From Deltaproteobacteria bacterium (GTDB lineage Bacteria; Myxococcota_A; UBA9160; SZUA-336), in contig JAFDDB010000004.1 of NCBI GenBank assembly GCA_019311115.1, positions 5,121 to 69,120 of the forward strand: a DNA stretch of 64,000 nucleotides, given 5' to 3'. How positions within the stretch are numbered: position 1 is the first letter of the stretch; every line of letters starts with the position of its first letter. The notes below the pieces were generated by a model. That model searched no databases and was not told where the DNA came from. It saw only the letters and a list, made by a program, of their open reading frames with translations. This document shows positions 2,694-13,037 of this stretch, piece after piece. Both the position numbers and the translations under genes were made by a program.

Positions 2694-3713
2694 TCAGCCT
2701 AGAAGCAGCTCCACGCCGATTTCGAGAGCGACCTCGGCCGCGGCCGGGCCGGCGACACTGGGCAGCCGGGCCGCACCGATGGTGCGCCGGAGGATCTCGA
2801 CGCCCGCGTAGCGCCGGGCCAGGGCCACGTCCTCCGCCCTCCCACCCGACCGGCGATAGCCCTCGACCAGGCGCTCCGCGCCGCGGCTCCAGCGCGAGGA
2901 GTTCTCCATGGGCCCGCCCGCTGCGCAGATGAGCAGGTGGGCCAGGGCAGTCCCCAGGTCGAAGGCCGGGTCTCCCACGTGCGCGATCTCGGCGTCGATC
3001 AGCCGCGGCTTGCCGCGCTGCAGCATGACGTTGCCGGGCTGGGGGTCGCCGTGGACCAGAGCCGAGGCCTCGGCGTAGTAGCGCGCGCGCAGCTCCGAGA
3101 TCGCCTCGCGAACACCCGGCCGGGCGAGTCTACGATCGGCGGCCTTTCGGACGGCAGGCTCGAGCGGGAACGCGTCGGGCTCGTAGGGCAGCGCGAAGAT
3201 GTGCTCGCCGTGCAGGCGCCGCATTTCGTCGTTGGCGAACTGTGCCGCCAGCTGTGACGCGCCCTCGCGAGTCGCGGCGTGGACTCTACCCAGGTAAGTG
3301 CCGAGCGCGTCGAGCGCGTCATAGGGAACGTGGCCTGCGTCGAGCGCATCCGAGAGGCGCTCCGAGCCCAGGTCCTCCATCACCAGCACGCGAGAGTCCG
3401 CGTCGAACGCCAGGATGCCCGGAAGGACGGGCGCACACTCCGGTGCGCGCTCTGAGACGCAGGCCGCGTAGCGCCGCTCGAAGACGATTCGCTCGGTCGT
3501 GACGCGGTACTCGGGGAAGCGCTCCAGCGCCTCGCGAGCCTGCTTCACGATCCAGCTCGTGCCGGCATCCGGGCCACCGGTCACGCGCACGCGGCGCACG
3601 TAGTTGATGTTGCCGTCGCCGGCGGGCTCGACCCGGGCGTCCGCGGGTTGCGGAAGCAGTCCTCGGCTCGCAAGGTACTCGGGAAGGTTCTCGTCGGAGA
3701 GCCGCATCGCCAT
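2694..3713 (-). CDS. APH-family phosphotransferase, methylthioribose kinase (MtnK)-like
   Basis: GDGNINYV N-terminal motif, catalytic HGDPQPGNVM, and DAEIAHVGDPAFDLG resembling MtnK/APH kinases. Confidence 0.5.
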   Translation of the reverse strand: MAMRLSDENLPEYLASRGLLPQPADARVEPAGDGNINYVRRVRVTGGPDAGTSWIVKQAREALERFPEYRVTTERIVFERRYAACVSERAPECAPVLPGILAFDADSRVLVMEDLGSERLSDALDAGHVPYDALDALGTYLGRVHAATREGASQLAAQFANDEMRRLHGEHIFALPYEPDAFPLEPAVRKAADRRLARPGVREAISELRARYYAEASALVHGDPQPGNVMLQRGKPRLIDAEIAHVGDPAFDLGTALAHLLICAAGGPMENSSRWSRGAERLVEGYRRSGGRAEDVALARRYAGVEILRRTIGAARLPSVAGPAAAEVALEIGVELLLG

Positions 3714-3734
3714 CGGCAGTACGGGGAGTATGAC

Positions 3735-4298
3735 GTGGGAAGACAGGGCCTGCTGCCGTCCATCCTGGCCTTCGCCGTGCTGCTGGCGGCGAGCGCCTGT
3801 GACCGCCGCGTCGAGCCCTTCGTGGCGCTCGAAGACGAGCCCCCGGCCTCGGAGCGGCCCGTGCGCATCCCGGGTCTCGAGCAGGCCAAGCCGAGCGCTG
3901 CGGTACCGCCGATGGTGCGCCGGGGCAACCCGCCGCCCGGCGGCGAGACGGCGTCGGTACCCGGGGTCGAGATCCGCGGCACGATAGAGCTGGCGCCAGG
4001 CGCACCGGCCGGCGGCGAGGGCGTGTTGTTCGTGATCGCGCGCTCGGGCGCGGGGGGGCCCCCGCTGGCCGTCCGGCGCCTGCCGGTCGGACCGTTCCCG
4101 CTGGAGTTCTCGCTGGGTCCGGGCGACGTGATGATGCAGGGACGCCGCTTCGAGGGAGAGCTGACGCTGACCGCGCGCGTGGACCGCGACGGCAACCCGT
4201 TGACGCGCGGCGAGACCGATCTCTCGGGCAGCGCCCCGGGCCCGGTGACACCGGGCCAGACCGGCATCTCGATCCGGCTCTCGCCGGGCGGCGGCTGA
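3735..4298 (+). CDS. Predicted lipoprotein, hypothetical
   Basis: Probable GTG start with GGGGAG RBS; signal peptide plus lipobox LLAASAC; Gly/Pro-rich mature part. The upstream part of ORF 3648..4298 overlaps the divergent kinase gene. Confidence 0.4.
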   Translation: MGRQGLLPSILAFAVLLAASACDRRVEPFVALEDEPPASERPVRIPGLEQAKPSAAVPPMVRRGNPPPGGETASVPGVEIRGTIELAPGAPAGGEGVLFVIARSGAGGPPLAVRRLPVGPFPLEFSLGPGDVMMQGRRFEGELTLTARVDRDGNPLTRGETDLSGSAPGPVTPGQTGISIRLSPGGG

Positions 4299-4339
4299 TC
4301 GGGCTAAAGGCGTGGCGGATCCACCACGAAGCGGAAGAG

Positions 4340-5326
4340 GTGATGAGCGGAGCTTCTCTTCACGTCCACAGCGCCGCCGGCGTCGAGATGATCATCGCGA
4401 TCGATTCGACCGCGCGGGGTCCTGCCCTTGGGGGGTGCCGCTGGCGGAGCTACGAGGATCCGCTGGAAGCGCGCCGCGAGGCGCGCGCGCTGGCCCAGGC
4501 CATGACGCGGAAGGCCGCGCTCGCGGGCCTGGCCCTTGGTGGCGGCAAGGCGGTCGTCTGCGGTGACGCACGCCTCCGCACCCGCGATCAGTTGCTCGTC
4601 TTCGGCGACTTCGTCTCGTCGCTCGACGGCCGCTACATCACCGCGGCCGACATGGGTACCGGCGAGCAGGAGATGGCGGTCATCGCGGAGAAGACCTCGC
4701 ACGTGGTGGGCCTGCCACGCGAGCGCGGCGGCTGCGGTGATCCGGGTCCCTTCACGGCCCTGGGCGTCCGCATGGCGATGGAGACCGCGCTCCGGTCGCG
4801 CGGTCTCTCGCTGGCGGGCGCGCGGATCGCGGTCCAGGGCGTCGGCAGCGTGGGTGGATTCCTGGTGCGTTATCTCTGTGAGGCCGGTGCGGTCGTGATC
4901 GCCGCGGACCCCGACCTGGAGCGCCTTGGCGAACTTCCCGACGGCGTGGCCGTCGTGACGCCGGGCGAGATCCTCGACGTGGAGTGCGACGTGCTGGCGC
5001 CTTGCGGTCCCGCGCGTGTCATCGATGCGTCAAGAGCTGACGCGCTGCGTTGCGCCATCGTGTGTGGCGCGGCGAACAACACGCTGGCCGGCGACGAGGC
5101 CGCGGCCGTCATGCACGGGAGGGGCGTTCTGCTGGTACCGGACTACCTGGCGAACGCGGGCGGCCTGATCCACCTGGCCGTGTCGCGCGAGGGAGGCAAT
5201 GACGCTGCATCGCGGGAGCGGCTGCGCGTCATCCCCGAGAACCTCGACCGGGTCCTGGCGCGCTGCCAGGAGCGGGGCCTCGAGCCGATGCAGGCCGCGG
5301 AAGAGCTGGTCGAAGACGCGCTCTGA
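4340..5326 (+). CDS. Glu/Leu/Phe/Val-family amino-acid dehydrogenase (leucine/valine dehydrogenase-like)
   Basis: GGCR and GGGK motifs, Rossmann fold GVGSVGG; 328 aa. Confidence 0.65.
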   Translation: MMSGASLHVHSAAGVEMIIAIDSTARGPALGGCRWRSYEDPLEARREARALAQAMTRKAALAGLALGGGKAVVCGDARLRTRDQLLVFGDFVSSLDGRYITAADMGTGEQEMAVIAEKTSHVVGLPRERGGCGDPGPFTALGVRMAMETALRSRGLSLAGARIAVQGVGSVGGFLVRYLCEAGAVVIAADPDLERLGELPDGVAVVTPGEILDVECDVLAPCGPARVIDASRADALRCAIVCGAANNTLAGDEAAAVMHGRGVLLVPDYLANAGGLIHLAVSREGGNDAASRERLRVIPENLDRVLARCQERGLEPMQAAEELVEDAL

Positions 5327-5336
5327 GTGGCTGCGC

Positions 5337-6338
5337 TCAGCGGGTCTCGCAGGCCTGCGACATGCGTCGCACCTTGGGCGAGAAGCGGTCCGGATCCAGC
5401 GTCGCGTCATCGAGCCGCCCGCGCAGCTGCGTCCAGCTGTCGCAGGTCGCCTGCGCGTCATCGAAGGCGACGTGGACCAGCAGAAGGTGGCTGAAGAGGA
5501 TGCGCTGCTGGCGCTCGGTCCCGAAGGCGAGCAGGTCGGGCCGCAGCTCCTCGAGGGTCTCGCGCGCCACGTCGAACTCGCCCTGGTAGTAGGCCTCGAC
5601 CGCATCGGAGAGGACCTGCGTCATGTCTTCCTCGGGGGGTCTTCGCCTGAGGGGCGCCGGCGCGACGGGGGCGGGCGCCTCGGCTGCGGCGAGCGGCTCC
5701 TCGGGTGCCAAGGGCGCGATCGGCGGCTGCGGTGCTGGCGCGGCGGACACCGGGGGGAGTGACCCGGTCGTGGCCGATCCGCCCAGCGGCGCGTCATGCT
5801 CCGGGATGTCTCCGAACACCGGCAGCCGGAGCGCCTGCCGCTCGCCGATGCGGCTCGGGTTGTCGATCCCGTTCAGCAGCGCGAGAGCCGGGATGCGCTC
5901 GGGACTTCCGTACGTGCGCCGCGTCAGCACGGCCATGGTCTCGCCGCGCCGCACGCGGTGATGGAGCAACGCGGGGATCCGCAGTCGCGTCCCGGGCTCC
6001 AGCTTCGCGCCCGCGGGCTCCACGAGCAGCGCCAGCGCCGCCCCGAGCTCCCAGTCTCCCCAGTAACGATCCGCCAGCCCGGACCACTCGTCGCCGTTCG
6101 CGACCGTGTGGTCGTCGGCCAGCGGGATCTCGATGACGCTCCCCGCGCTGAGATGCCCTCGACCCAGCGAGTTGTGCACGCGCAGCGACTCTCCGAGCTC
6201 GGCCACTCCGTAGTAGCGCAGCGCGATCGACTCGAGCGTGTCGCCGGGCGCCGCGTTGTGCACGACCTGACGCGCTGCGGCAGACTGGGGCCACGCCAGC
6301 GTCAAGAGGACGGCGAAGACGAGTCCGGGTCGTGTCAT
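5337..6338 (-). CDS. Secreted LysM-domain protein (two LysM repeats)
   Basis: Signal peptide MTRPGLVFAVLLTLAWPQSAAA; LysM-like HNAAPGDTLESIALRYYG and HHRVRRGETMAVLTRRTYG. Start codon overlaps the upstream gene's stop. Confidence 0.6.
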   Translation of the reverse strand: MTRPGLVFAVLLTLAWPQSAAARQVVHNAAPGDTLESIALRYYGVAELGESLRVHNSLGRGHLSAGSVIEIPLADDHTVANGDEWSGLADRYWGDWELGAALALLVEPAGAKLEPGTRLRIPALLHHRVRRGETMAVLTRRTYGSPERIPALALLNGIDNPSRIGERQALRLPVFGDIPEHDAPLGGSATTGSLPPVSAAPAPQPPIAPLAPEEPLAAAEAPAPVAPAPLRRRPPEEDMTQVLSDAVEAYYQGEFDVARETLEELRPDLLAFGTERQQRILFSHLLLVHVAFDDAQATCDSWTQLRGRLDDATLDPDRFSPKVRRMSQACETR

Positions 6339-7615
6339 TCCGTGCTCCAGGGCGTCTCGCGCGGAATGAACGTGTGACGCAGTGTTCGCCGCTCGCCGGC
6401 GCGTAGCTCGAGCACGCGCCGCACCTCGCCGTGCGACGGGTGGTCGAGCACCACCTCGTGGGGTCCGGGCACCAGCTCCAAGGGCTCGGCCCGCGGTGTG
6501 TAGAAGGGCTCGCGGCCGTCGATCTCGACACGTGCCCACGGGTACACCGCCAGGGTCAGGGTGGCGGCCTGCGGCGGAGGCGGGAGCGCCGCAGACACGG
6601 CCGGAAGCGGCTCGGGCTCAGGGCCGGCGCTCACCCGGCCCAGCAGCACCGCGCCCAGTGCCAGCAGCCCCATCGCGCCGGCGGCCGCCAGCGCACGGTG
6701 GCGGCCCGCGCGGAGCGGCGGCCGGATCTGCATCGCAGGCGGCCTCGCCGGGTCGTCGTCGGCTTCGCCCGGCCGCAGGGACCGGGCCCGGCTGCGCACG
6801 CGGACCTGCCACATCCAGGTCGCGACCTCGGCGCGCTGGGTGCGGGCGTCCACCGGCCCGGCGGCCTCGCGAAGCCGGTGCATGACCTCTGCCAGGTCCG
6901 GGCGCAGCGCCGGTGACGGCGCACGGCAGGCGCGGATCAGCCGCTGCAGGCGGCGTGGCGCGTGGGCCACCTCGGCGTAGGCCGATCCCGGCCGGCGTCC
7001 GCTGACCAGCTCCTCGAGCAGGGCTCCCAGCGAGTGCACGTCGGCCCGGGCATCCACCCGCGCGCCGCGGCCGAGTTCGGGAGCCGCATAGGTGGGGTCG
7101 AGCTCCGAGGCGTCCACCGGCAGCTCGCCGGGCTCGCGGGCGCCGCCGAGTCCGTCCAGCTTCAGCTCTCCCCGACGGCTGACCAGGATGTGCTCCGGCC
7201 GCAGGTCCGTGTGGACCACCGAGTGCAGGTGCAGCTGCTCCAGCGCGACGGCCAGCTCGAGCGTGATGCGGGCCGCCAGCTGGGGCCGCAGGCGTTGGGA
7301 GCCGGTCTCGCGGGCCCGGTCGAGCACCTCGCGGAGCGAGCCCCCGTCCACGTACTCGCGCACCAGGTAGACGTCGCCGTCGCGCGCCAGGCAGTCGAAG
7401 ACCTGGAGCACGTTCGGGTGGGCGATGCGGGCGGCGAAGCGGGCCTCGCGCCAGAAGTGCTCGGCCCGTGGGCCGCTGCGGTCGCGGGGCAGGACGCGGA
7501 CCACGACCTCGCGCTCGAGTCCGCGCTGGCGACCCCGGTACAGATCCGAGCGCCCGGAGTCGAGTGGCTCGTCCACCACCACGCTGCCGATGGCCGTTCC
7601 CCTGGGAATACCCAT
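6335..7615 (-). CDS. Membrane Ser/Thr protein-kinase-like protein with a degenerate catalytic motif and a C-terminal PEGA domain (probable pseudokinase)
   Basis: Kinase fold: VVVRVL in place of VAIK, HTDLRPEH in place of HRDLKPEN, DGL in place of DFG, YAAPE; TM helix ALAAAGAMGLLALGAVLLG; PEGA-like TLTLAVYPWARVEIDGREPFYTPRAEPLELVPGPHEVVL. Confidence 0.65.
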   Translation of the reverse strand: MGIPRGTAIGSVVVDEPLDSGRSDLYRGRQRGLEREVVVRVLPRDRSGPRAEHFWREARFAARIAHPNVLQVFDCLARDGDVYLVREYVDGGSLREVLDRARETGSQRLRPQLAARITLELAVALEQLHLHSVVHTDLRPEHILVSRRGELKLDGLGGAREPGELPVDASELDPTYAAPELGRGARVDARADVHSLGALLEELVSGRRPGSAYAEVAHAPRRLQRLIRACRAPSPALRPDLAEVMHRLREAAGPVDARTQRAEVATWMWQVRVRSRARSLRPGEADDDPARPPAMQIRPPLRAGRHRALAAAGAMGLLALGAVLLGRVSAGPEPEPLPAVSAALPPPPQAATLTLAVYPWARVEIDGREPFYTPRAEPLELVPGPHEVVLDHPSHGEVRRVLELRAGERRTLRHTFIPRETPWSTE

Positions 7616-7664
7616 GGTTCGACGAGCACCATACTGGGCGCAGGAGCCTTGGCAAGGATCCCGC

Positions 7665-9005
7665 TCACTCCGTGGGACGCGGCTCCCCTGGCGGCTCGAG
7701 AGCCCCCGGGATCGAGCGGTAGAGCCAGTAGGCCGCCAGGTAGTCGAGCCCCGTGTAGCCGCGCTCCGGATCGTCCCGCCCATCGAGCCGGTACGGGTTC
7801 GACTTCCACTCGAAGCTGCTCCGCGGCCGGTCCGCGATGGGCACGATCACCGATGCCTGCGCCCTCCACTTGCGGCCGGGGATCCACCGCCGGGGCAGGG
7901 CCGCCAGCCGTTCGGGCGAGGGAATCACGGCACGCTTGTCGATCGGGAAGTCCTCGAGCACGGCGCGGCCGGCAGCCAGGGCCGCGCGATCGCAGGACTC
8001 GGGCTCGATCCGGCAGAGCAGGGCGGCGAAGTAGGCGTTGGGCTCGCCCCGGCCGCGCAGCCGCGCGCGGTGCAGGCCGTGGCGCAGCTCCGCCAGGGCC
8101 GGGTCCCCGTTGCGCCGCGCGATCGGCACCAGCGCGCGGTACAGGTTCCAGCTCATCAGGTCGTTCGAGTAGTTCGTCACGCCGAGGATCCGCAGGTTGG
8201 TGCGGCGGCTGCGCGCGGGAACGCGGAGGCGGTCGCGCAGCCGGTCGCGCTGGTGCGCCCAGCGCGGGTCGGGATCGAGCTCGGCCGCTAGCACGAACGC
8301 GGCCCATCCCGTCAGCTGGAAGATCGAGTTGAAGCCCGCCCCCGAGCGGTACGACAGGTCGCCGAAGCGCGTCTGCACGCCGCGTGCGTCGACCAGCCGC
8401 ATGTCGTTGCGGACCAGGTGCGAGGCGAAGTCGACCGCGAGTCTCCGCGTGCGCTCGGGAAACAGGTCCGCGCACTCCGCTATGGCGGGCACCAGCCCGC
8501 TCGCGTACTGGTCGGCGGACACGTCGGCCCGGTACACGTAGCGCTCGAAGCCCGGCGCCCCCGGCAGCCAGGGCCGGTCCTGCGGTGGCATCACGAGGCC
8601 CTCGTCGCGGCGCACGCCGCGCGCCATCAGGCCCTGCACGCCGGTCACGTCCATCAGGAAACGCAGCCCGTCGAGGGCACGGCGAGCGTCGGCCATGGCC
8701 GCGGCACGCTCGGGCCCCGCGGGCTCGACGCGCGCGCGCGTGCAGGACGTGGCTGCCCAGCTGCCGTTGAAGAAGGGCGTGTCGGCCAGGCGCGGATACG
8801 TGCCGCGCGCCAGGTCGTCCTCCCACGTCGGCAGGTGGATCTTGTAGATCACGAGTCCTTCACGCGACACGTGGCGCTCGTGCAGCGCAGCACGGAACAG
8901 CCTCGCCTTCTCCGCCAACTCGAGCGTCGCAGCGCCGACTTCGGCCACGGGCAGGGCGGCGCCGGCCGGGGTCAGCAGGAGGACGAGCAGCAGCCGCGCG
9001 ATCAT
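7665..9005 (-). CDS. Secreted hypothetical protein (~446 aa)
   Basis: Signal peptide MIARLLLVLLLTPAGAALP; no recognisable family; same strand and tightly spaced with flanking genes. Confidence 0.45.
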   Translation of the reverse strand: MIARLLLVLLLTPAGAALPVAEVGAATLELAEKARLFRAALHERHVSREGLVIYKIHLPTWEDDLARGTYPRLADTPFFNGSWAATSCTRARVEPAGPERAAAMADARRALDGLRFLMDVTGVQGLMARGVRRDEGLVMPPQDRPWLPGAPGFERYVYRADVSADQYASGLVPAIAECADLFPERTRRLAVDFASHLVRNDMRLVDARGVQTRFGDLSYRSGAGFNSIFQLTGWAAFVLAAELDPDPRWAHQRDRLRDRLRVPARSRRTNLRILGVTNYSNDLMSWNLYRALVPIARRNGDPALAELRHGLHRARLRGRGEPNAYFAALLCRIEPESCDRAALAAGRAVLEDFPIDKRAVIPSPERLAALPRRWIPGRKWRAQASVIVPIADRPRSSFEWKSNPYRLDGRDDPERGYTGLDYLAAYWLYRSIPGALEPPGEPRPTE

Positions 9006-9997
9006 CGCCCGCTGAGTTCGTCGGCCAGGTCGCGCGCCTCGTCGAGACGGGGGTCGCCCGCCGAGGCGTCCCGATCGTACGCGCCCCGGTACTCGATGGG
9101 CAGCGTGTCCGCGATCAGGTAGCCCACGATGTGCATCGCGCGCTCGCGGCGCCCCCCTGCGCGCTCGAGCAGCTTCGCGGCGGGAACCGGCACGCCGATC
9201 CGGCCACGTACGATGCAGGGGTGCGCGTGGTCTTCCTCGAGCGGGACGAGCTTCTCGCACCCGGCGAGTCCGAACGGAACGACCACCGCGTCTGGGTGTC
9301 CGAGATACCGGGCCACCGCCGCGAGACAGGGCTGCATCGCACCGTCGCGGCTGCGCGAGCCTTCGGGAAAGACCAGCAGGTGCTCGCCCGCCTTCAGGCG
9401 CTCGTCCGCCGCCTCGAAGATCCCGCGAGCGATCTTCGCGACCTCGCGCGCCGACATCACCGCCTCGCCTGACGCGCGGCTCGTGCTCTGGGGCATCTTG
9501 ATCGTGCCGAACGTCATGCTGGCGAGCCTGCGCACTGGATGGGTGTAGACCTTGGGACCGACCAGCGTCGTGAGAATGCTCGACACGTCGCCGTAGCCGG
9601 CGTCGGCCATCAGGTAGTCGAGCACGTTCACGTCGACGAACGACAGGTGGTTGCCCAGGAATACCGCGGGCCGCTCCCTGGCCACGTCGAGCCGCCCGGT
9701 ATCGTCGAGCGCGGAGCCGTCGAGCACGACCCTGCCCATGATCGCTCGCGACACGCTGCGCGCCAGTGGGTCGGAAGGGTGGAATCCCCAGGTCGCCCCG
9801 GTCTTTCGCGCGCGCTGCAGGAAGGCCTCGAAGCCGGCCTCGCCGTAGTCACTCGTGCACGCGTCGATGAGTGAGTACAGGTCCGGCGCGTCGCCGGCAC
9901 CCCAGTCGCTCAGCAGGCGGGACATCTGCGACACGAGACCCGCGCGGTCGAGGGCGATGTCGCTGGCTTCCGGGGACGTGGCCATGGCCGCGAGCAT
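9002..9997 (-). CDS. PlsC/LPLAT-family acyltransferase (1-acylglycerol-3-phosphate acyltransferase-like)
   Basis: HxxxxD box FLGNHLSFVDVNV and FPEGSRS motif; ~110-aa N-terminal extension; stop overlaps the next gene's start. Confidence 0.65.
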   Translation of the reverse strand: MLAAMATSPEASDIALDRAGLVSQMSRLLSDWGAGDAPDLYSLIDACTSDYGEAGFEAFLQRARKTGATWGFHPSDPLARSVSRAIMGRVVLDGSALDDTGRLDVARERPAVFLGNHLSFVDVNVLDYLMADAGYGDVSSILTTLVGPKVYTHPVRRLASMTFGTIKMPQSTSRASGEAVMSAREVAKIARGIFEAADERLKAGEHLLVFPEGSRSRDGAMQPCLAAVARYLGHPDAVVVPFGLAGCEKLVPLEEDHAHPCIVRGRIGVPVPAAKLLERAGGRRERAMHIVGYLIADTLPIEYRGAYDRDASAGDPRLDEARDLADELSGR

Positions 9998-10129
9998 AGC
10001 AACGGACCGCGGCGGGGCACCTTGCTCTGGCGTCGTCTCTGTCTCGGGCTGGCGCTGGCCGGTCGCGCATGACGCCGCTCCGGCGCCTGCGGTTTGCGCC
10101 GCTGTCCGAGCCCCCTAGAGTGCCGCGCG

Positions 10130-10888
10130 ATGCGGGATAGAGTGTTGGCTGGGCGGCGGGTCGCGGAGTTCAACCGGCTCTACACCAGGGATTTCGATCG
10201 CGACGTGGCGATCTACCTGGACCTGGCCTCCAAGTACCCGGGCCCCGTGCTCGAGCTCGGTTGCCAGACGGGCAGGGTCACGGCGCGCTTGGCACAGGCG
10301 GGCCACGAAGTCGTCGGGATCGACACGAACCGGCCGATGCTCGAGATCGCGAGCGCGCGGGTCGAGCCCTGGTCGGAGCGCGGCCGGGTCATGGACTTCG
10401 ACCTGCGGCACGCCGCGCTGGCCGAGCGGTACCAGGTCTGCATCGCGCCCCTCTACGCCTTCAACTCGCTGATCGACGTCGAAGAGCAGCGCCTCTACCT
10501 GCGCCACCTGCAGTGTTCGATGCGCTCGCCGGGCATCGTGGCGTTCGACCTGTTCTGCCCGCTCTCCTTCGTGCGTCCCGAGGAGACCGGCGAGTGGCGG
10601 GTGATCGAGCGCGAAGTCGAGGGCAGCCGCCTGGTGGTGCGCGATCGGCGCGAGATGCTCACTCCGCTGCTGGAGCGCCGGATCCAGGCGTTCCGGATCG
10701 ACGGTTCGACCGAGCACGAGAGCGAGACTCACCGCCGCTACCTGCCGCCGCAGAGTGCCGCGAGCCTGCTGCTCGAGAGCGGCTTCGAGAGCGTGCGCTG
10801 GCTCGACGGCTACGACCTGTCGACCCTCCGGCCGGTCGAGGACGACGCGCGCCCGCAGGGGCCCTTCATGGTGATTGCCGAGCTATAA
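10130..10888 (+). CDS. Class I SAM-dependent methyltransferase
   Basis: VLELGCQTGRVTARLAQAGHEVVGIDTNRPML motif I/II. Confidence 0.6.
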   Translation: MRDRVLAGRRVAEFNRLYTRDFDRDVAIYLDLASKYPGPVLELGCQTGRVTARLAQAGHEVVGIDTNRPMLEIASARVEPWSERGRVMDFDLRHAALAERYQVCIAPLYAFNSLIDVEEQRLYLRHLQCSMRSPGIVAFDLFCPLSFVRPEETGEWRVIEREVEGSRLVVRDRREMLTPLLERRIQAFRIDGSTEHESETHRRYLPPQSAASLLLESGFESVRWLDGYDLSTLRPVEDDARPQGPFMVIAEL

Positions 10889-11008
10889 TCCGGCCGACCC
10901 GCCCCACCCCCCGAGCCCGTGCGCGCCCTGTCTTCCGGTCCCGTCCGGCCCGGGCTGCGCTCCGCCGCTCGCGGCCTTCCCCGGGGCGCGAATCTCCAGG
11001 GAGCCGGC

Positions 11009-12406
11009 ATGGGCGAGAGCCTCTTCAACAAGGTCTGGGACCTCCACGCGGTCCGCGAGCTGCCGACGGGGCAGACGCAGCTCTTCATCGGGCTGCACTT
11101 GGTCCACGAGGTCACGAGCCCGCAGGGCTTCCAGATGCTGCACGACGCCGACCTCGGGGTCCTGTGCCCCGAGCGGACCTTCGCGACGGTCGACCACATC
11201 GTCCCTACCGACACGCACGCGCGTCCGTTGGCCGACGGGCTCGCCGAGCAGATGCTCCAGGCGTTGGAGCGCAATGCCAAGCGGCACGGGATCGAGTTCT
11301 TCGACATCGGCTCGGGCGACCAGGGGATCGTGCACGTGATCGGTCCCGAGCAGGGACTGACGCAGCCGGGCATGACCATCGCCTGCGGTGACAGCCACAC
11401 CTCGACTCACGGCGCGTTTGGTGCCGTGGCCTTCGGCATTGGCACGACGCAGGTGCGCGACGTGCTGGCGACGCAGTGCCTGGCGCTCGCGCGTCCCGCG
11501 GTGCGGCGAGTCGAGGTCGACGGCCCCCTGGGTCCCGGCGTGTACGCGAAGGACGTCGTCCTGCACGTGATTCGGGTGCTCGGCATCCAGGGCGGCGTCG
11601 GCTACGCCTACGAGTTCGCGGGCTCCACCTTCGACGCCATGTCGATGGAGGAGCGCATGACCGTCTGCAACATGGCGATCGAGGGCGGAGCGCGTGTGGG
11701 CTACGTGAACCCGGACGAGACGACCTTCGACTTCCTGCGCGGGCGCCCGCACGCTCCCGCGGGTGACGACTTCGAGAACGCGATCGGCTGGTGGCGCAGC
11801 ATGGCCAGCGATGCCGACGCCCCGTACGACGATCGCGTCGCGATCGACGCCCGGCAGATCGGCCCGACCGTCACCTGGGGCATCAACCCCGGACAATCGG
11901 TCGGCGTAGACGAGACGCTGCCCGCGCTGTCGGAGTTTCCCGACGGCGACCGCGCCACGGCCGAGGAGGCCTACGGCCACATGGGCCTGCGGCCCGGGGA
12001 CAAGATCCTGGGCACGAAGATCGACGTCGCCTTCATCGGCTCGTGCACCAACTCGCGCCTCTCCGACCTGCGCGAGGCGGCACGCGTGGTGCGGGGACGG
12101 AGCGTCGCCCCCGGCGTGCGGGCGCTCGTGGTGCCCGGCTCGGAGGCGATCAAGCGCGAGGCCGAGCAGGAGGGTCTGCACGAGGTCTTCCGGGCGGCCG
12201 GCTTCGAGTGGCGCGAGGCGGGCTGCTCCATGTGCCTGGCCATGAATCCCGACAAGCTGGTCGGGAACGAGCTTTGCGCATCGAGCTCGAACCGGAACTT
12301 CAAGGGGCGGCAGGGCAGCCCCACCGGGCGTACCCTGTTGATGAGCCCCGCCATGGTGGCCGCTGCGGCGGTCGGCGGCCGCGTGGCCGACGTGCGGGAC
12401 CTGTGA
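11009..12406 (+). CDS. leuC: 3-isopropylmalate dehydratase large subunit
   Basis: [14 protein letters not shown]-terminus, aconitase-family Cys motifs GSCTNSR and CSMC. Confidence 0.85.
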
Positions 12407-12416
12407 GGAAGCCGGG

Positions 12417-13037
12417 ATGAGTTCGGAAGTCGAGAAGATCGAGCGGCGCGAGGGACGTGGCATCGTCGTGCGCGGCGACGACATCGACACGGATCGGGTC
12501 ATCCCCGCCCGCTACATGAAGTCGATCAGCTTCGCCGGGCTCGAGGAGTTCGTCTTCGCCGACGCGCGCCGCGCGCAGGACGGAACGCCCAAGGATCACC
12601 CGTTCAACGAGGCACGCTTCGAGGGGGCCTCGATCCTCGTAGTGAACAAGAACTTCGGCTGCGGCAGCTCGCGAGAGCACGCGCCACAGGCGCTGATGCG
12701 CTGGGGGATCCGCGCGATCGTCGGCGAGAGTTTCGCGGAGATCTTCGCCGGAAACTGCACGGCCATCGGCCTACCGGCCGTGACGGCGGCTGGCGACGAC
12801 GTGGCCGCGCTGATGGACGTCGTCGAACTCGATCCGGCGTCGCCCGTCGTCGTCGACCTGACGGCGGGCAAGCTGACCTCGCGTGCGGGCAGCGCGCCGA
12901 TCACCATGCCGGCGGGCGCGCGCGGACAGCTGCTCGACGGCAGCTGGGACGCCATGCGGACGTTGCTCGCCGCGCGCGACGAGATCGAGCGCAAGGCCGG
13001 CAGCCTTCCCTATCCCGGGAATTTCCCCGCCCGCTAG
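12417..13037 (+). CDS. leuD: 3-isopropylmalate dehydratase small subunit
   Basis: GCGSSREHAPQAL motif; immediately follows leuC. Confidence 0.85.
   Translation: MSSEVEKIERREGRGIVVRGDDIDTDRVIPARYMKSISFAGLEEFVFADARRAQDGTPKDHPFNEARFEGASILVVNKNFGCGSSREHAPQALMRWGIRAIVGESFAEIFAGNCTAIGLPAVTAAGDDVAALMDVVELDPASPVVVDLTAGKLTSRAGSAPITMPAGARGQLLDGSWDAMRTLLAARDEIERKAGSLPYPGNFPAR

Follow-up and report, generated by a model that had tools for sequence, protein, structure and literature searches.

We analysed four consecutive genes, here called g1 to g4, in a 64,000-nucleotide (nt) stretch of contig JAFDDB010000004.1 from a Deltaproteobacteria bacterium (assembly GCA_019311115.1), which we refer to as the window. 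An original prediction, made from the letters of this DNA, had described the four as one envelope operon. The list of open reading frames (ORFs) bears out the four minus-strand genes at the boundaries proposed; the features, with lengths in amino acids (aa), are these.

g1, positions 9002-9997, minus strand: ORF of 331 aa, acyltransferase of the LPLAT/PlsC superfamily.
g2, positions 7665-9005, minus strand: 446 aa when the ATG overlapping the g1 stop is taken as start; predicted exported protein of an uncharacterised family.
g2/g3 spacer, positions 7616-7664, minus strand: 49 nt.
sigma70-like match TTGCCA-16-TATGGT, positions 7655..7628, minus strand: in the g2/g3 spacer, ending 13 nt before the g3 ATG.
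g3, positions 6335-7615, minus strand: 426 aa, single-pass membrane pseudokinase.
g4, positions 5337-6338, minus strand: 333 aa, predicted periplasmic triple-LysM protein.

The overlaps that had been claimed between g1 and g2 (9002/9005) and between g3 and g4 (6335/6338) are real, and each is a 4-nt ATGA. A short spacer at 7615/7665 was also correctly noted, though it measures 49 and not 50 nt. Ortholog alignments back the start codons chosen, and independent gene calls on related contigs (L048, L050-52) agree with both 4-nt overlaps and place roughly 50 nt between g2 and g3. G+C content is about 72% across the four-gene region, and no terminator-like site occurs in 4800-10600. The genes share one strand, are joined by overlaps or a short spacer and have no internal terminator, which are the sequence marks of an operon; tight spacing alone suggests that g1 to g4 are co-transcribed here. 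The promoter scan returned a single sigma70-like match, where 0.1 would be expected by chance. Its hexamers are not kept in the orthologous g2/g3 spacers of 28-46 nt, and because of this lack of conservation we do not count the match as a sign of an internal promoter. No Shine-Dalgarno sequence precedes the g3 ATG. An Rfam scan of 4800-10600 gave one chance-level miRNA match only (E 0.2), and a repeat scan found short GC-rich matches only, again at chance level.

The g1 product matches the Acyltransferase family PF01553 over aa 103-243 with 38.4 bits against a cut-off of 23. It carries catalytic motif I, HX4D, as HLSFVD (aa 117-122, nt 9649-9632) and motif III, FPEG (aa 210-213, nt 9370-9359), the latter reading FPEGSRSRDG from aa 210. 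In having the Pfam domain and both motifs g1 resembles the LPLAT/PlsC proteins (PF01553), including Thermotoga maritima PlsC (5kym), which is its only PDB sequence match (E 0.022), and to this extent the proposed PlsC-like acyltransferase stands. However, g1 scores only 26.9 bits against the NCBIfam PlsC model TIGR00530, far below the cut-off of 102.95, which argues against a canonical PlsC. The idea that g1 is the housekeeping PlsC was considered and, judged on the 64 kb of the window, may or may not hold. For the same reason the automatic name carried by its homologs, 1-acyl-sn-glycerol-3-phosphate acyltransferase, is unverified. By its sequence g1 is filed in the LPLAT superfamily and not as a verified PlsC. 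The extended N-terminus noted in the original prediction is genuine: about 100 aa precede the Pfam domain and are conserved in the homologs, which span 85-100% of the query length (mostly at least 88%). Unlike PlsC (TIGR00530; T. maritima 5kym), g1 has this conserved extra region and, by hydropathy, no transmembrane segment.

The exact g2 protein is already on file, with locus tag JRG76_01505, among the hypothetical proteins from a metagenome-assembled genome (MAG) of a Deltaproteobacteria bacterium. The claim that it is secreted fits a hydrophobic, signal-like N-terminal segment (aa 1-26) and the lipobox-like N-termini of some homologs. Four Cys residues are invariant inside the Myxococcota set, not outside it, and fit structural disulfides in an exported protein. 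At the sequence level g2 has no match in Pfam, NCBIfam or PDB. A profile of 26 g2 sequences, which takes in Planctomycetota, Nitrospinota and Binatia homologs at 28-35% identity, likewise has no match in PDB and Pfam. Among the motifs invariant family-wide are R-x-D-V-S-x-D-Q-Y (aa 159-167, nt 8531-8505) and EWKSxPYR (aa 399-406, nt 7811-7788), and the invariant residues D75, D161, D165, D421, R129, R159, R393, Y54 and Y167 are candidates for catalysis.

An AlphaFold2 model of g2 built with 39 sequences (mean residue confidence, pLDDT, 90.4; predicted TM score, pTM, 0.89) predicts a six-hairpin (alpha/alpha)6 barrel. The best Foldseek matches of the model in PDB are all six-hairpin enzymes, namely GH9, GH76, GH88 and the AGE/cellobiose 2-epimerase group. 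By its predicted fold g2 is weakly similar to the six-hairpin enzymes (GH9, GH76, GH88, GH127, AGE). A link to them is also suggested by its export signal and by relatives that adjoin, or are fused to, enzymes acting on carbohydrates or modifying the envelope; unlike these families, g2 has no sequence-level membership in any of them. The g2 family is sizeable: at 50% identity it comprises 1,394 clusters (E <= 1e-3) or 561 (1e-10), and no Pfam model covers it. Thus the description of g2 as unclassifiable holds for sequence families but misses its predicted place, as an exported protein, in a large six-hairpin (alpha/alpha)6 family that has no name.

We also recorded the surroundings of g2 relatives. 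Paralogs in three loci (L013:4053-12482, L014:2899-9236, L024:989-5251) adjoin ArnT-like GT-C transferases (PMT_2) and EptA/LtaS-like membrane enzymes of the sulfatase family; further neighbours there are a DegT sugar aminotransferase, a phosphoenolpyruvate (PEP) mutase/cytidylyltransferase of phosphonate synthesis, an FkbM methyltransferase and a carbamoyltransferase. Distant relatives with extra domains (P0263, P0320, P0321, P0342, P0346, P0353, P0377, P0395) have an alpha/beta-hydrolase (DLH-like) or Reg_prop repeats fused N-terminally or BNR/Sortilin beta-propellers fused C-terminally, and one distant relative has a weak match to the GH127 catalytic domain. In five Planctomycetota loci (L028, L031, L032, L034, L042) a gene for a weakly Peptidase_S9-like alpha/beta-hydrolase of about 338 aa lies directly upstream of the g2 homolog on the same strand, an adjacency that parallels the hydrolase-g2 fusions found elsewhere. 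In three of these five (L028, L031, L034) a SurA-like peptidyl-prolyl isomerase gene stands before the hydrolase, downstream of the genes for ribosomal protein S4 and rpoA. The genomic context of g2 relatives points to extracytoplasmic glycoconjugate chemistry. Because relatives adjoin or are fused to envelope-glycoconjugate enzymes, we infer that g2 may cut or remodel a glycan or a glycolipid head group.

The g3 product combines a cytoplasmic kinase-like part (about aa 1-270; Pkinase PF00069, 103.8 bits), a transmembrane segment (aa 306-331, nt 6700-6623) and an 80-residue C-terminal domain that includes a beta-domain ectodomain (about aa 350-417, nt 6568-6365). By sequence, the solved kinase domains nearest to g3 are those of Mycobacterium tuberculosis PknB (E 2e-21) and StkP; against NF033483 g3 scores 121 bits, with a cut-off of 450. 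The residues of a working kinase are largely gone. The beta3 Lys is replaced, as VVVRV (aa 37-41) places an Arg opposite K40 of PknB; the catalytic loop reads HTDLRPEH (aa 135-142) against HRDVKPAN in PknB, keeping the Asp and replacing the Arg, Lys and Asn; DFG has become GLG within DGLG (aa 154-157); and the Gly-rich GxGxxG loop is degenerate (DSGR-SD). The loss is shared by the g3 orthologs linked to g2. The beta3 Lys is missing from all 16 (Arg or Glu instead), the DFG Asp from 14 of the 16, and the HRD Arg is kept in none of the 16, while the HRD Asp position varies among orthologs (D, N, A, E, G). The degenerate beta3 Lys, catalytic loop and DFG confirm, at the level of sequence, that g3 is a Hanks-type pseudokinase, as originally called.

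We asked where g3 falls among described pseudokinases. Its motif pattern (VxVR, HxD, GLG) matches neither ActPs3 nor any of seven described bacterial pseudokinase families. Membership in the 'GLW' pseudokinase family was considered and rejected, as in that family GLW replaces HRD, whereas in g3 it is DFG that GLG replaces. The kinase domain also matches the PADLOC models PD-T4-6 and mad6 (E 1e-38 to 1e-37), which raises the idea that g3 is an anti-phage kinase of the PD-T4-6 or MADS Mad6 type within a defence island. These matches are generic to kinase domains and lie far under the family cut-offs (NCBIfam MAD6, 87 bits against 460), the catalytic residues of g3 are lost, g1, g2 and g4 have no PADLOC match, and the neighbourhood is stable and housekeeping in character with no sign of mobility. 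We reject a role in defence as extremely improbable.

The g3 ectodomain has a motif conserved across orthologs, PWAE...F.TPRA...HP..G. A PEGA identity for this domain is plausible; the PEGA match in the ectodomain of a second ortholog has an E value of 0.13.

The last gene, g4, encodes a protein with a hydrophobic, signal-like N-terminus (AAA|RQ near aa 22), three LysM repeats (about aa 27-73, 77-123 and 127-175; nt 6260-5814), a Pro/Ala-rich disordered linker (aa 183-231) and a C-terminal five-helix TPR-like domain with two invariant Cys (aa 236-332, nt 5633-5343). Its identification as a LysM protein is secure, with the first repeat at 39.6 bits against PF01476 and the second and third together at 29.2 bits. 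In the AlphaFold2 model (pLDDT 75; LysM repeats above 85) the repeats form three beta-alpha-alpha-beta units. Foldseek matches the LysM block to the triple-LysM ectodomains of Ecp6, CEBiP and NFP (E 3e-5 to 3e-3); for the tail its matches are weak and fall on TPR proteins with peptide-binding domains (E 0.07-0.3).

We next consider whether the four genes travel together. Scanning one genome per species with a g2 profile gave 47 loci, onto which the window proteins were mapped by tblastn. Twenty-three of them are orthologous Myxococcota loci, 22 of which have downstream sequence and are informative. In these 23 the order is leuD-leuC-methyltransferase, g1-g2, and then a Leu-type dehydrogenase and an Ig_CycH-like gene. 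In these loci g1 and g2 are neighbours almost everywhere; within the species set only L002 and L009 lack g1, and outside it L056/L057 lack it too. The pair g3-g4, on the other hand, is present in 10 of the 22 informative loci, and the other 12 have g1-g2 without g3-g4 and show the dehydrogenase or the Ig_CycH-like gene directly after g2. Among the loci examined g3 and g4 always co-occur, and they share the 4-nt overlap in every gene call seen.

A fifth gene belongs to this picture. Six of the 10 g3-g4 loci have an ORF of 120-150 aa between g2 and g3 that encodes an FHA domain (E 4e-12), and counting all loci this gene lies between g2 and g3 in nine (L002, L006, L007, L009, L010, L027, L055, L056/L057). 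A short spacer without FHA is seen in the window, in its closest relatives (L048 and L050-52), whose four-gene layout is identical to that of the window, and in four other species. We found no FHA gene in the 49-nt spacer or elsewhere in the window. Four loci in three arrangements (L002, L009, L056/L057) read g2-FHA-g3-g4 without g1. Certain relatives join g2 and FHA in single ORFs of 560-591 aa (L056:8001-9776, L057:2116-3891; proteins P0016, P0020, P0028). Such ORFs begin with a signal-like segment, and their two domains follow each other without an intervening membrane segment, which would put the FHA domain outside the cytoplasm, a topologically odd arrangement; rather than real fusions, they may be products of a missing stop codon or of faulty assembly.

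In a rough neighbour-joining tree of g2, loci without g3-g4 occupy at least two separate positions and loci without FHA several. Because the tree scatters both kinds of loci, an ancestral g1-g2-FHA-g3-g4 order with repeated loss is the simplest reading. On this reading g3-g4 was lost at least twice and FHA several times, and the window genome would have lost the FHA gene of the ancestral cassette.

A metagenome scan with an alignment of five g3 ectodomains revealed a related cassette in another setting. The 12-kb metagenomic contig L054 carries, at 6445-9200, an FHA gene, a kinase with the same arrangement of transmembrane segment and PEGA-like ectodomain, and a triple-LysM protein. A subtilase gene and unknown genes flank these three, and the contig has neither g1 nor g2. 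All motifs of the L054 kinase are canonical (GEGGMG, VVLKK, HRDLKPAN, DFG), and this cassette is probably the active, ancestral form of the degenerate one in the window. Since the L054 cassette stands alone and encodes a canonical kinase, it would be an independent signalling unit older than its association with g2. The kinase appears to have died in the g2-linked lineage, before the FHA losses.

Together these results lead us to a reading that we hold to be somewhat probable: the locus joins a core g1-g2 pair of envelope enzymes to an accessory, degenerate FHA-kinase-LysM cassette with a proposed scaffold role, as a lineage-specific composite of an uncultured Myxococcota clade. In this composite g2 is best seen as the hub, with g1 as its usual upstream partner and the cassette of FHA, pseudokinase and LysM genes as an optional downstream one.

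The original prediction had instead favoured a single envelope sensing or remodelling module of an undescribed operon type, which in its strict form would be one obligate four-gene machine whose LysM/pseudokinase pair controls g1 and g2 directly. The gene content, the envelope flavour and the spacing survive from that claim. Its proponents could point to the stop/start overlaps, the 49-nt spacer and the missing terminator-like sites, to the same gene order in 15 loci or more, some of them from species with g2 identities as low as 52-60%, and to the loci where g1 is missing, the upstream context differs and g2 nonetheless stays with FHA-g3-g4 (L002, L009, L056); the fused g2-FHA ORFs lean the same way. 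Because the four-gene arrangement recurs in related genomes, the proposal does not fall outright for lack of synteny. However, the synteny check also shows that the genes are not one obligate unit. The 12 informative loci with g1-g2 alone have lost g3-g4 or never had it, other loci lack g1, and the L054 cassette exists without g1 and g2. Paralogs and distant homologs of g2 never have g1, g3 or g4 nearby: these three genes are absent from the paralog loci (L013, L014, L021, L024) and from all non-Myxococcota loci in the scan. Moreover, the whole region including leuDC and the dehydrogenase is collinear, so that adjacency is partly inherited. We consider the single machine unlikely, and the operon type is better described as a composite of two separable pieces.

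At the other extreme, the adjacency could be purely historical, with g1-g2 and g3-g4 functionally unrelated and g3-g4 a decaying relic of little or no function. Collinearity over at least eight genes, housekeeping leuCD among them, the repeated losses of g3-g4 and FHA, and the vanished catalytic residues of the kinase would all agree with this, as would the fast evolution of g4, for which a word-based search retrieved 10 homologs only. Against it, the g3 and g4 ORFs are intact, with domain residues kept, in orthologs that are 32-46% and 27-39% identical to the window proteins, respectively; the ectodomain motif, the LysM cores and the Cys pair are preserved, and so is the 4-nt g3/g4 overlap in every gene call. 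Intact ORFs, kept residues and kept overlap together argue for purifying selection rather than decay, and we regard a mere relic as rather unlikely.

Several observations weigh against the composite of core pair and scaffold cassette. The structural matches of g2 are weak (E ~1e-3, TM 0.43-0.47, 9-17% identity), and its catalytic residues could not be mapped. The g3 of the window retains the HRD Asp and the alphaC Glu, and because of this it may have residual or non-canonical nucleotide binding. PEGA (PF08308), the domain named in the original prediction, is the best Pfam family for the isolated g3 ectodomain, yet its 16.2 bits (E 0.0099) fall short of the 20.8-bit threshold. Contact between g3 and g4 is something we infer purely, and their constant pairing and 4-nt overlap do not by themselves tie them to the function of g1 or g2. 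The g1-less g2-FHA-g3-g4 loci and the fused g2-FHA ORFs hint that g2 is tied more closely to the cassette than two independent modules would be. Finally, the source organism is an uncultured MAG.

With these points in mind, the composite of a core pair and an accessory cassette could work as follows. The g1 protein would be a cytoplasmic LPLAT-type acyltransferase with its catalytic motifs kept, acylating a lipid on the inner side of the inner membrane, and g2 would cut or remodel a glycan or glycolipid head group outside that membrane. The g3-g4 pair would be the accessory remnant of a three-gene signalling cassette made up of an FHA protein, a Hanks kinase whose ectodomain is PEGA-like, and a triple-LysM protein. 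Within the pair, g4 would bind peptidoglycan through its three LysM repeats, and its TPR-like domain could contact the PEGA-like ectodomain of g3, which in turn would act as a catalytically dead transmembrane scaffold coupling the state of the cell wall to cytoplasmic partners, such as FHA proteins or active kinases encoded elsewhere. The two halves, g1-g2 and g3-g4, would be able to exist and function apart.

A comparison with known systems helps to place g3 and g4. The pseudokinase domain of M. tuberculosis MviN (MurJ), FhaA and PknB are reportedly the subject of a study by Gee et al. 2012. By analogy, MviN-FhaA is the closest worked-out precedent for g3. In M. tuberculosis, PknB phosphorylates the pseudokinase domain of MviN, upon which the FHA protein FhaA is recruited and peptidoglycan synthesis is restrained (PMC12599244). 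Like MviN, g3 is membrane-anchored, with a dead Hanks-type domain on the cytoplasmic side, an extracytoplasmic domain opposite and a peptidoglycan-related context; as with MviN-FhaA, an FHA partner gene adjoins g3 in nine orthologous loci, though not in the window. Unlike MviN, g3 is single-pass, lacks a flippase fusion and has a PEGA-like ectodomain in place of a carbohydrate-binding module, and the glycan-binding element of its cassette, LysM, resides in a separate protein.

The PASTA kinases PknB, PrkC and StkP are single-pass Hanks-type kinases that read cell-wall fragments through extracellular repeats. The kinase domain of g3 is closest to those of PknB and StkP, and g3 is likewise single-pass; unlike the PASTA kinases, it has no PASTA repeats, it has lost the catalytic Lys, Asn and DFG Asp, and wall binding is presumably delegated to the separate LysM protein. 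In plants, CEBiP/CERK1 and LYR receptors pair a kinase-less triple-LysM protein with a single-pass kinase or pseudokinase. The arrangement of a kinase-less triple-LysM g4 beside a single-pass pseudokinase g3 resembles CEBiP/CERK1 and the LYR pseudokinases, and the LysM block itself resembles CEBiP, Ecp6 and NFP. In contrast to the plant receptors, the g3/g4 pairing is drawn from gene adjacency and the domains are bacterial, so that the likeness is one of analogy and implies no common ancestry.

Carried further, these parallels allow a bolder proposal, which we put forward as speculation and consider quite improbable. FHA, the PEGA-like kinase and the triple-LysM/TPR protein would form an undescribed bacterial receptor pair for sensing peptidoglycan, a counterpart of CEBiP/CERK1, turned here into a pseudokinase scaffold that positions or gates g2 and the atypical LPLAT for local remodelling of envelope glycolipid or glycan.

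The genes around the locus were also mapped. A Glu/Leu-type dehydrogenase gene (4340-5326) converges on g4, with 10 nt between the two, and g1 is divergent from a unit of SAM-methyltransferase (SAM, S-adenosylmethionine), leuC and leuD (10094-13037). The flanks at 2694-5326 and 10094-13037 are collinear with the four-gene cluster in many Myxococcota MAGs and comprise genes for an APH-family phosphotransferase, an Ig_CycH-like protein, the Glu/Leu-type dehydrogenase, the SAM methyltransferase, LeuC and LeuD. The presence of leucine-related genes on both sides (leuCD and the Leu-type dehydrogenase), next to an acyltransferase, is suggestive. Because the whole neighbourhood is collinear in the lineage, part of the synteny reflects inheritance and not functional coupling.

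The class of each component was already known, as were pairings of Hanks-type kinases or pseudokinases with FHA proteins in envelope control. Three points are new here: a PEGA-like pseudokinase is combined with a triple-LysM/TPR protein that is a separate polypeptide, a kinase can be seen to turn into a pseudokinase within one cassette (canonical in L054, dead in all g2-linked copies), and g2 represents a large unannotated six-hairpin family. Taken alone the locus is not striking: its parts are of familiar classes, its organism is uncultured and its operon type splits into two pieces. If the proposed wiring is true, g3 would add a Gram-negative member to the short list of bacterial pseudokinases for which a role has been proposed, and its cassette would have caught the passage from kinase to pseudokinase. 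In addition, g2 flags an exported family of about 1,400 clusters (50% identity) that has no annotation and is repeatedly linked to enzymes of envelope glycoconjugates.

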